Positions 1 to 49,226 of a DNA stretch of 49,226 nt are shown here, piece by piece (the first letter of the stretch is position 1; every line of letters begins with the position of its first letter). This DNA comes from Escherichia coli. GTDB taxonomy: Bacteria; Pseudomonadota; Gammaproteobacteria; Enterobacterales; Enterobacteriaceae. A program made the translations under genes and the position numbers. Under the pieces are notes generated by a model, which did not search any database, was not told where the DNA came from, and saw nothing but the letters and a program-made list of their open reading frames with translations. The stretch lies in the NCBI RefSeq assembly GCF_003334765.1, contig NZ_QOWT01000030.1; one strand, given 5' to 3'.

Positions 1-397
1 GAGCGGTTTTTCAATTGCCTCAATGGCATCAGACGGATTCATACATGTATTCCCGGTGAAAAAAGACAAAACCCCGCACACCGGAAAGGTGGCAGGGGAC
101 TCACGGAGATAATATCTGCCTAAAATTATTTGGAATGCAGGTATATGCAGCTAATTTGTATCGGCTCATTAGTACAGAACTAAACCTCATCTGACAGTCC
201 GCTCTGTGCCATAAGCGGTCCTTATATACACTAAGGTAGAATTGTCTTCCGGGGCGGGCTTGTCCAAATAAAATCCTAAAGTATCTAATTTATACGTAGT
301 GATTCAGTATCATGTGCTACGTGTTGAATTATAAAATTAGTTTAAATTGGTTATTTAGATATCTGCATGATAACTATCAGACCATTGTGGAGTATTT

Positions 398-916
398 ATG
401 ACGATTCTTGAAGAAATGGAAGCAGAAGCATGGCATATCCTAACAACCATCTATACGTATCAGCGGTTGATGGAAGGCCTTACTAATAGCAGTACAAGAT
501 ATGAGCTTGCCAATCAGTTGGTAGCCCTCAATGCATTGTTGGAAATGTTGGTGATCCGTTTAGCGCGTCTTGCGGATAAAAGGAAAGATGTGAGATCTGT
601 ATCAATGTTTTTGAAACGCGGCTCGTATTCTGCTTCACCAGAGGCTGTGAAATTGGCAGCTGAAAAGTTCCTTGCACTCGCAGAACCAGTATTAAAGATT
701 AGGCATGAGCAGATTGCACATATGAAGCCCGGCACACTCAGTAGCTTCGAGCCTCGAGAACTTCCAAATGAAGCTCTGAGAGCAACTGAGGCTCTAATCG
801 ATCTCATTGACATTGCCAGAGATCACCCTCAGTCTTACACATACCGAGTTGGCTCACAGGAGCCTGCCATTAATTTGAGAGCTTCAGTAGAGACTAGCGA
901 ACTAGTTAAAATCTAA
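398..916 (+). CDS. Hypothetical protein, 172 aa; possible HEPN-like fold (R-x5-H motif RHEQIAH in the C-terminal half)
   Basis: Intact ORF in an AT-rich segment just left of the Type I RM operon. The only functional hint is the RHEQIAH motif, which resembles the HEPN Rx4-6H signature. No search was run. Confidence 0.4.
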   Translation: MTILEEMEAEAWHILTTIYTYQRLMEGLTNSSTRYELANQLVALNALLEMLVIRLARLADKRKDVRSVSMFLKRGSYSASPEAVKLAAEKFLALAEPVLKIRHEQIAHMKPGTLSSFEPRELPNEALRATEALIDLIDIARDHPQSYTYRVGSQEPAINLRASVETSELVKI

Positions 917-1052
917 TAATTCACTCAAGTCTATGCTACTTTGCCGAGTTGCTTTACTCGGCAAAGTAATTAGCTCCCCGTTAATAACAGATCCGGCAGC
1001 CCCTCAACCTTTTTGCTTAAGTGAATATATTTTCACAATATTTCCTACTGCT

Positions 1053-1295
1053 TCAGTCATAAAATTTATTTTTGCCTTTTGACGTCATGAGAAGGAAATA
1101 TGAAGGGTGACTCTTTATTTCTGAAGAGTGGCTTGTTATATTAAAAACCTCTTTTAGAATCGTAAAGGCTCCTGTAGCCAACGACACTGGATTTGGTGCC
1201 CCAATAAAACCTATCAATGATGGCGCAATGTTAAGAAAAAGTTCTTTATTACTTTTCCGCTTATAGGTCTGTATTTTTTGCTCAATATCGGTCAA
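1053..1295 (-). CDS. Small hypothetical ORF, 80 aa, immediately downstream of the frameshifted gene
   Basis: ORF track only. AT-rich, no recognisable motif. It may be a further out-of-frame piece of the upstream gene. Confidence 0.2.
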   Translation of the reverse strand: MTDIEQKIQTYKRKSNKELFLNIAPSLIGFIGAPNPVSLATGAFTILKEVFNITSHSSEIKSHPSYFLLMTSKGKNKFYD

Positions 1296-1337
1296 TCCTT
1301 CATCCCATATGCGCTCGACAAAATGCTGATTTATCAG

Positions 1338-2248
1338 CTACCTCTTATATGGGTCACTTTCTGCTTCTATGTCATACGCAGCTTCACGTAGCACAGAGCG
1401 GAAGGCATTAAAACTCGATTCGTAGTCAGTTCTAATTTTGTAGAGTTCACTTGGAGTAAGCCCCTCTAGAAATGGAACGTCAATAGAGAGTTTAACCCCC
1501 TGAACTTCATTCCTTTGATCCAGTTTACGAAGAATTTCTCCATGAAATGGGCAATATGCGCCCAGGGACGCTCTGCATGAATGCGCTTGGTTAAGATCAG
1601 TAATAATGTTTTTATAATGAAAGAGAACTGTACGATTTTTTGCTCCCTGCACCCACCGTTCATAACTTTTTTTCCGCTATGCTTTCCCATGACAATTTCC
1701 ATAGATATGGTGCCATCATCATTATCAATGGCATTATTTATATATTGATACATATATCCATTTGTATACGTGCTTTCGCAGTCTTTAATTTTCAACATAA
1801 TTTCATTCGTTAAAACATTTCTGTTTAACAACCGAATTTTATTTGTATTGCCCAGACGTTCTATATTCTGTACGGATAGTCTATTTTCATACAGACGGGC
1901 AATATTAGGGGGGAGATATCGAAATAGGAAATTAGTATCAGAGTTATCTTCTAAAATTCCATTAGCTCTCTCCGAATCTTTAATAGAGGATTCTCTTCGT
2001 ACAAAAACGATAAACTCTCCACGGATAAGATCAAAGTTTTCTTTAGCAAACCTGATAAACCTAGCAATTTCCTTCCTGAGATGTTCAACCTTCTCTTTGC
2101 TATCGCTTTCAATAAATTTTTCAACTACGTTTTCTGATAGATTCACCCTGTATCGTAGGCTCAATGAATATAGAACGTCATCAAGAATGACTCTGTCCAT
2201 TGAAAACAAACCACTCTTATACCTTTCAATATTACGATTCCCCGCCAT
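1338..2248 (-). pseudogene. Frameshifted hypothetical gene, about 304 codons if rejoined; frame break at the T7 run at 1667-1673 (A7 on the coding strand)
   Basis: ORFs 1466..2248 and 1338..1652 are on the same strand in different frames. The first ORF turns to low-complexity read-through after ...MGKHSGKK, and the second frame continues as SYERWVQGAKNRTVLFHYKN... upstream of its annotated start. Adding one A to the run restores a single ORF. Confidence 0.45.
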
Positions 2249-48254: not shown

Positions 48255-48286
48255 TAATAACAAAACGCTATCACTGACGGTAGAAT

Positions 48287-48325
48287 ACGTTGCCACTGCA
48301 ACTCCTGGCGGAACAGTGGCAACGT
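48287..48325 (+). terminator. Candidate iha terminator hairpin (12-bp stem, 15-nt loop)
   Basis: acgttgccactg / caactcctggcggaa / cagtggcaacgt, 33 nt after the iha stop. Followed by attaggttaa (modest U content). Confidence 0.4.
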
Positions 48326-48474
48326 ATTAGGTTAAGTGCATTTCCGATCCGCTAATGAGATTTCGTTACCAACAACTAATATCGTCACAGGAAATGCACG
48401 GATTATTTTTAACTTATCATTTACATACTTGTCCAGAGTGTAAGCGCACCGTGAAGGACGTGGGGTAAAAATTA

Positions 48475-48720
48475 GTTTACAGAGAGAGTGACGTTCCAGG
48501 GCAACAACTCTTTCATGCGGTTGGCAGGCCAGGTGTTGATTACACTGATCACGTGGCGTAGCCACGTTTCCGGCTCGATTCCGTTAAGTTTTGCAGCTAC
48601 CGATCAGGCTGTACATCACTGCCGCACTATCGCTCGTCATCTCAAAGTCCGGTCTCGTCAGCAGGAAGGTATCATTCTCTCCCGCCATTTTTCCAGGGGC
48701 CCGGTCAGATAAGTCCCTTT
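48475..48720 (-). pseudogene. IS66-family transposase C-terminal remnant, frameshifted
   Basis: Minus-strand frames read ...GPLEKWRERMIPS..., ...RPDFEMTSDSAAVMYSLIGSCK... and ...LNGIEPETWLRHVISVINTWPANRMKELLPWNV, the characteristic IS66 transposase C-terminus split over three frames. Confidence 0.45.
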
Positions 48721-49226
48721 GTCTATCGCTGACTCCTGACTCATAACCCGGTTAGCAGAATGCAGGGTCACCACCTCGCCACGACCGAATCCGAATAAGT
48801 CAATTGCACCTTCTCAATCGCCATTTTGTCACAATTAAGTTTGATAAAGCAGGTCACCTCTGCACTGAATCTGCTCCAGTGCCTCATTGGTTTCCGTCCC
48901 CCCCTTTAAACTGCCGGATAAGACTGCTGCACAGCGCCTTCCCCGGAATCAAATCACTTTCCCTGTCCGCCACAATCCGCTTCATGCCACCTCGTATTTT
49001 GTTTCAGAGACCGAAATCTGCCAGAAAGTGACTACGCGTGCACATATCGGTTTTCTGGGTTACATGCATCGTGTTATTTTCTGAAATGCAAAATAATAAA
49101 AAACAAGGACACATAATGAAGGATGAAATACACAGTACCAGCATCAACCGTAAGCGTACAGCGAGGGCCGTATTGACGGGGATGTGTTATTCAGCTGGCA
49201 GTGCTATGCGCCACGGAAGCAGTTCG

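Follow-up and report, generated by a model that had tools for sequence, protein, structure and literature searches.

The window analysed here, 49,226 nucleotides of Escherichia coli DNA (contig NZ_QOWT01000030.1 of RefSeq assembly GCF_003334765.1), reads as the central cargo region of an integrative island of ~81 kb located at the 3′ end of a tRNA-Ser(GGA) gene, and we give this reading a probability of about 0.87. The island would belong to the serW/serX family, which includes the TRI/OI-43/OI-48/SpLE1 elements of enterohaemorrhagic E. coli (EHEC) and the SRL pathogenicity island (SRL PAI) of Shigella. It is a further cargo variant of this well-described family, built from well-described modules. 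The sole mildly new point of our analysis is a deletion in the regulator gene rptR, together with a decayed operator.

Attachment site and limits of the island

The limits of the island can be read in near-identical genomes. The closest public genome, scaffold JH660541.1 (GCA_000158415.2), differs from the window by one mismatch over positions 1-17434 and is 100% identical over 1-7715; further NCBI genomes are nearly perfect matches to 1-17434 as well. To the left of the window, this scaffold carries genes for a GTPase and for DUF905, DUF932, antirestriction, RadC, DUF987 and DUF4942 proteins, followed by serW and infA-aat-cydCD. The GTPase gene occupies positions 7674-8546 of scaffold segment L054, the segment that is identical to window 1-7715, and the tRNA-Ser(GGA) gene serW (L054 15877-15964) is located 8.16 kb left of the window start. 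To the right, assuming collinearity, an integrase gene lies ~22.6 kb past the window end. It encodes a 405-amino-acid (aa) P4-type tyrosine integrase with Arm-DNA-bind_3, Phage_int_M and Phage_integrase domains (segment L044, 10001-11218), follows genes for AlpA, DUF3987 and a TOTE primase and adjoins clpA-clpS-cspD. A 14-bp repeat, CCCCCTCACCGCCA, is found at the tRNA 3′ end and again 174 bp from the integrase gene. On JH660541.1 the island measures 81,337 bp.

The same repeat is present in NCTC9082 and LSN03. In NCTC9082 and LSN03-016011/A it accompanies an integrase end that lies beside ycdU, and in other strains (segments L018 and L056) the left end adjoins serX-ghrA-csg. The sequences of serW and serX are identical. 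Repeats of 14 bp have been reported at TRI (OI-43/48) at serW/serX (PMC9144400) and at the SRL PAI, the excision of which is int-dependent (PMC7545054). Site-specific excision and integration have been described for TRI as well as for the SRL PAI. By analogy, the island would be moved by its P4-type integrase, placed at the end far from the tRNA gene, between the CCCCCTCACCGCCA core repeats; its mobility is presumed.

The window itself contains no tRNA gene and no copy of the 14-bp attachment (att) repeat. A tblastn search of the window with a single query, the island's own integrase, gave a best E-value of 0.36, and RefSeq homologues of the window list no recombinase. An earlier note on this DNA, made from the sequence alone, had stated that the window holds no integrase and had proposed a tRNA-associated island with integrase and att site further out; both statements agree with what we find in the window and in the near-identical genomes. 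Neither flank of the relatives carries the plasmid backbone that the note had named as evidence against an island. Its suggested sites for comparison, pheV and selC, proved to be the wrong ones, as the near-identical genomes place the arrangement at serW or serX.

Two features of the att region were observed in other genomes. In the serX tRNA of CP042638.1 (segment L014, 5357-5444), two bases of the anticodon loop are substituted (CCTGGAA becomes CACGGAA), which changes the conserved U33; the tRNA may be damaged, or the sequence may contain an error. The tRNA-Phe call made by ARAGORN at this position was rejected as a mis-call or sequence variant, the alignment keeping the GGA anticodon. Near the integrase end, the 14-bp core and the serX terminator are repeated two to three times in tandem (L003 45294-45669; L043 30642-30836). 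These repeats carry the RefSeq annotation 'RtT sRNA' and look like reiterated attR/tRNA-3′ remnants.

Mosaic structure of the cargo

Features were mapped by family searches (NCBIfam, PADLOC, Pfam and Rfam) and from the annotation of near-identical RefSeq loci. Coordinates, strand and assignment are as follows, with ORF for open reading frame and IS for insertion sequence.

1-42, minus: first 42 nt of a GTPase gene (YeeP/YfjP-like); opens the conserved CP4-like distal module, remainder beyond the window
398-916, plus: hypothetical 172-aa ORF, conserved; common to SRL-PAI-like (fec) and O157:H7 serW islands
1466-2248, minus: hypothetical 260-aa ORF, conserved; common to the same islands
3446-3616, plus: rptR (alignments and translations)
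3656-6094, plus: hsdM (NCBIfam TIGR00497, 283 bits; PADLOC MTase_I, 1426 bits)
6094-7434, plus: hsdS (PADLOC Specificity_I, 422 bits)
7446-8102, plus: darT (NCBIfam equivalog, 262 bits, cut-off 150)
8087-9166, plus: darG (NCBIfam equivalog, 451 bits, cut-off 250)
9185-12280, plus: hsdR (NCBIfam/PADLOC, above curated cut-offs)
12280-12996, plus: M48 metallopeptidase gene, last gene of the defence module
13160-13471, minus: IS110-family transposase, C-terminal fragment (NCBIfam transpos_IS110, E 1.9e-7; RefSeq annotation)
13472-15681, minus: IS21-family element, truncated; right end kept, istA without its N-terminus
15897-18095, minus: iutA (RefSeq annotation of a 99.76%-identical locus and gene calls)
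18098-19435, minus: iucD (as iutA)
19432-21174, minus: iucC (as iutA)
21174-22121, minus: iucB (as iutA)
22122-23846, minus: iucA (as iutA)
23889-23907: predicted Fur box of the aerobactin locus, 17/19 positions matched
23982-25175, plus: shiF, major facilitator superfamily gene (RefSeq annotation of the 99.76%-identical locus)
25561-26558: IS3-family fragment, carrying an ALIL frameshift pseudoknot at 25619-25735
26591-26933, minus: IS481-family N-terminal fragment
27249-33299, minus: block with a 214-aa hypothetical gene and the next four entries
27914-28183, minus: PerC-like regulator gene
28262-28900, minus: ibrB
28885-30117, minus: ibrA (phosphoadenosine phosphosulfate-reductase-like)
30618-33299, minus: 893-aa Upf1-like helicase with a C-terminal DUF2726 domain
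33540-35161, minus: remnants of a two-partner secretion/contact-dependent inhibition (CDI) system (POTRA/CdiB and haemagglutinin fragments)
37390-37408: predicted Fur box of a decayed iro-like cluster, 17/19 match
37500-37970, plus: 156-aa hypothetical ORF
38153-38920, plus: IS1, intact
38907-39182, plus: Fes/IroD-like esterase, C-terminal fragment cut by IS1
39324-40448, minus: iroB-like C-glycosyltransferase, 374 aa, intact
41178-41375, minus: alpA (AlpA-family excisionase/regulator), internal (Pfam PF05930, E 6.9e-10)
~43047-43411, plus: second IS3 fragment
44146-44219, minus: Esr41 small RNA gene (Rfam RF02676, 103.4 bits, gathering score 102)
46164-48254, plus: iha, siderophore receptor/adhesin (NCBIfam NF010012 equivalog, 1618 bits, full length)
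~48472-48579 and from 49196 to the end, minus: IS66-family transposase fragments (RefSeq annotation of identical DNA; Pfam DDE_Tnp_IS66_C on a homologous gene call)

The G+C content per kilobase ranges from 33% to 59% within the window and from 41% to 53% by module. Family searches with the 172-aa and 260-aa ORFs (398-2248) gave no matches. Other islands, namely SRL-like fec islands and O157 TRI, dominated the matches to the 172-aa ORF and to Iha, which serve as comparison material only. The inventory in the earlier note (type I restriction-modification (RM) genes with DarTG, aerobactin, iha, alpA and at least six IS families) is borne out by family matches or RefSeq homologues. Its mention of CP4-like backbone genes is overstated, as the window has alpA and otherwise only the 42-nt start of the GTPase gene; the remaining backbone lies outside, and CP4-57-like distal genes (GTPase, antirestriction, RadC) are found just beyond the window in relatives.

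In the arrangement that we propose, int, alpA, DUF3987 and TOTE-primase genes would form one conserved end of the island and GTPase, antirestriction, RadC and DUF4942 genes the other. The cargo between them would be a mosaic joined at IS fragments, with five modules: the RptR-RMS-DarTG2-M48 (RRDM) defence module; Fur-regulated aerobactin with its receptor; ibrAB with the helicase; the decayed CDI and iro-like remnants; and an SpLE1-type segment with alpA, Esr41 and iha.

Relatives differ by the presence or absence of whole modules. The serX islands of O55:H7 USDA5905 (collinear with window 15682-49226 at 99.76% identity) and NCTC9082 (99.3% over 24227-49226) have neither the RRDM module nor the IS21 element, and USDA5905 has IS66 where the RM module would be. 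Past the window end, both continue into IS66, espI, a TOTE primase gene, the integrase (NCTC9082 only) and ycdU. In O157:H7 LSU61, the IS110 fragment at 13470, a junction common to both, is joined directly to position 43024, and iha and the ter genes follow. The serW island of O157:H7 17B6-2 has the same left 13 kb, followed after the M48 gene by a CDI locus and Zorya; the POTRA and haemagglutinin fragments of the window are homologous to this cdiBA locus and are remnants of it. In 17B6-2 (L064 28482-43178) the CDI locus downstream of the RRDM is complete and the Zorya system is of type I, and this island would thus combine several systems for defence and competition.

Remnants of six IS families (IS110, IS21, IS3, IS481, IS1 and IS66) are present, among which IS1 alone looks intact. 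Both of its inverted repeats are there and a target-site duplication is absent, so that it sits at a rearrangement junction. In the IS21 copy, a single 695-aa ORF (13571-15658, minus strand) results from the fusion of istA with istB. We rejected this fusion as an oddity in its own right, since it belongs to a truncated, decayed copy without a left end.

This pattern fits a cargo region in which IS-mediated deletion and insertion, as well as recombination between the serW and serX sister islands, have reshuffled the modules. The stepwise accretion put forward in the earlier note is not distinguishable from IS-mediated deletion and recombination between the sister islands: relatives differ by whole modules at IS fragments, and IS1 lacks a target duplication. 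Gene content and module boundaries are observed directly, as are the island limits in near-identical genomes, whereas any order of rearrangements is a reconstruction.

Alternative origins of the composite

Several observations weigh against the serW/serX placement. The island limits were read in near-identical genomes and not in the source contig's own flanks, and the collinearity of JH660541.1 with window 17.4-49.2 kb relies on coordinate arithmetic and a related NCTC genome, UGBU01000002.1. The integrase sits distal to an intact tRNA gene, which is unusual for P4-type islands; the distal placement is the same in LSN03, NCTC9082 and JH660541.1. O55:H7 USDA5905 carries a deletion of the integrase end, and some copies of the island are therefore immobilised. 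Lastly, a megablast search of complete RefSeq E. coli genomes found none that spans the junction at 13471/13472, where the RM module, IS21 and aerobactin meet. This would favour an assembly chimera of IS repeats from different loci, but the exact IS21 ORF with both neighbours occurs in at least 47 independent assembly blocks, including several NCBI genomes, and always adjoins iutA. A human gut metagenome contig spans window 3571-25658 with one mismatch. The RM-IS21-aerobactin junction is therefore taken as real, and the probability of a chimera is negligible. An exact-match scan of species-representative genomes for the IS110-IS21 junction found none, a result that, with one genome per species, is uninformative.

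Other origins of the cargo deserve more weight. A pheV- or selC-associated pathogenicity island of the SHI-2/SHI-3 or PAI-CFT073-pheV type would account for aerobactin with shiF and for iha, which are classic cargo of islands at these sites (PMC7545054), and iuc is known from 10 chromosomal sites (PMC10282060). However, all near-identical genomes have the arrangement at serW or serX, and the ends of the backbone correspond to those of the TRI/SRL family, which has the 14-bp tRNA-Ser core; such an origin is highly improbable. It is also unlikely that the window, or even the aerobactin segment alone, is ColV-like plasmid DNA captured in the chromosome through cointegration mediated by IS elements. 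Aerobactin is bracketed by IS21 and IS3 remnants and its allele is 99.8-99.9% identical to that of 17 plasmids, mostly of bovine origin, but these are the only ones; most E. coli plasmid copies, including those of ColV type, are 90-95% identical to the window allele, so that the ColV comparison suggested in the earlier note does not lead to the common ColV type. Replication, partition and transfer genes are also absent from the window ORFs, their annotated homologues and the relatives' flanks. We attach somewhat more credence, while still doubting it, to a mosaic that arose mainly as two or more integrative elements accumulated in tandem at one att site, the internal integrases being lost afterwards, and not through insertion of IS-borne cargo. 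The internal alpA (41178-41375) lies far from the integrase-proximal alpA, and the right 13 kb corresponds to an SpLE1/TRI segment and the left 13 kb to an O157:H7 serW-island segment. Against this, the window has no internal 14-bp repeat and, in the search with the island's own integrase, no integrase remnant, each module boundary examined falls at an IS fragment, and junctions of the LSU61 type fit IS-mediated or homologous recombination between serW and serX sister islands.

RRDM defence module and the rptR deletion allele

The left part of the window carries rptR-hsdM-hsdS-darT-darG-hsdR-M48 in this order, with six intact, full-length enzyme genes and the DarTG2 toxin-antitoxin genes darT-darG between hsdS and hsdR. 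Judged by its sequence, the module is the published RRDM island of enteropathogenic E. coli (EPEC) E2348/69, which has been shown experimentally to protect against several phages (Zhang et al., NAR 2025, PMC12255303). The seven-gene order is the same, the darTG DNA is 99.8% identical, and both modules lie in an IS-rich island setting beside a GTPase/Ag43/dynamin module. As in the published system, unmodified DNA would be restricted and phage DNA would be ADP-ribosylated by DarT.

The window differs from EPEC E2348/69 in two respects. Its HsdS has different target-recognition regions, the similarity of hsdS to its relatives being interrupted at ~6200-6640 and ~6850-7290. These breaks appear to be target-recognition domain swaps, and the restriction specificity is thus expected to differ from that of both EPEC and O157:H7.

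The second difference concerns the regulator. RptR represses the RRDM by binding TAGCTA repeats (PMC12255303). The rptR gene of the window has an in-frame deletion of 69 bp flanked by GGTCTGAA repeats, which reduces the product from 79 to 56 aa. Residues 49-71 are gone, including the DNA-binding helix α4 with E58, S60 and K61, whose roles were described in the same work (PMC12255303). The operator upstream (~3398-3415) contains two repeats, against three in EPEC E2348/69, and the second is TTTAGCTGA, leaving one canonical TAGCTA and one TAGCTG. The window allele accordingly departs from functional RptR, which has 79 aa, the E58/S60/K61 residues and at least two TAGCTA-type sites. This rptR is present in 249 complete E. 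coli genomes, and this darTG likewise in 249. The rptR gene is full length in 213 of the 249, and 36 (~14%), including O157:H7 strains and LSN03, match only positions 1-154, like the deletion allele.

It is possible, and we suggest it tentatively, that the RRDM of the window has no working repressor and that expression of the RM and DarTG2 operon is constitutive or else silenced through decay of its promoter. In published work, the enzymes downstream of an unrepressed RRDM promoter could not be cloned (PMC12255303). If true, natural rptR alleles would reveal the ways in which cells withstand the loss of RptR control or make up for it. The deletion allele provides a lead on RRDM regulation in O157:H7-related strains.

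Iron-uptake loci

The aerobactin locus shiF-iucABCD-iutA is complete. Its five iuc/iut genes are intact and in operon order, and the predicted Fur box lies 43 bp upstream of iucA.

The situation at the iro-like locus is different from the iro remnant proposed in the earlier note. An iroB-like gene is present, but it is intact, and its product is ~70% identical to plasmid IroB over 93% of the length; it is not a piece of canonical iroBCDEN. In the literature this gene has been termed an iroB homologue (PMC9144400). It is convergent with the esterase fragment, and the window contains only these two of the cluster, with iroC, iroE and iroN not found. The second Fur-box match (37390-37408) lies ~90 bp upstream of the 156-aa ORF, which precedes the IS1-disrupted esterase fragment. 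This suggests that 37390-39182 and the iroB-like gene are the remains of a decayed iron-regulated, iro-like cluster distinct from canonical iro. The count of three iron-uptake modules in the note is thus too high: two would be functional units, with current activity presumed, and the third is the decayed iro-like cluster.

Other cargo

The Esr41 match is full length and is located between alpA and iha. This EHEC small RNA is linked to the regulation of motility and iron-uptake genes.

The 893-aa helicase beside ibrAB is widespread, with an identical protein in 3880 assembly blocks. PADLOC gave only partial matches for it, to the helicase cores of Mokosh MkoA/MkoC and Hhe, and nothing convincing for IbrAB; a further defence system is consequently not claimed here. 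The helicase may be an uncharacterised single-gene defence candidate.

Comparison with known islands

The window adds one cargo combination (RRDM, aerobactin and iha) to the serW/serX family. Its significance beyond cataloguing is small, although it illustrates the exchange of modules between sister islands, with IS fragments as the points of exchange.

The aerobactin locus shares its shiF-iucABCD-iutA order and the Fur box upstream of iucA with those of SHI-2/SHI-3 and ColV plasmids. Those loci are, however, sited at selC, at pheU or on plasmids.

TRI (OI-43/OI-48 of EDL933 and SpLE1 of Sakai) shares with the present island the tRNA-Ser sites, the 14-bp repeat (PMC9144400) and the type of CP4-like distal module. 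Over window 36127-48831, which comprises a UCP030791 gene, IS1, the iroB-like gene, alpA, Esr41 and iha, TRI of O157:H7 is 99.2% identical. The island described here differs in what lies to the left of this shared segment, where it has the RRDM and aerobactin together with ibrAB and the helicase. The closest relatives showed neither ter nor ure genes within the window or beside it, positions 54194-66753 of JH660541.1 not being covered. Both clusters are probably absent from the island, since these ~12.5 kb between the window and the integrase end are too short to hold them.

The SRL PAI of Shigella flexneri, at serX, has the same att site and 14-bp repeat, and its excision by the integrase is documented (PMC7545054). 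SRL-like islands are 99.7-99.8% identical to window 1-2400 and continue from there into fecIRABCDE. The cargo of the SRL PAI consists of fec and a resistance locus, in contrast to the RRDM, aerobactin and iha found here.

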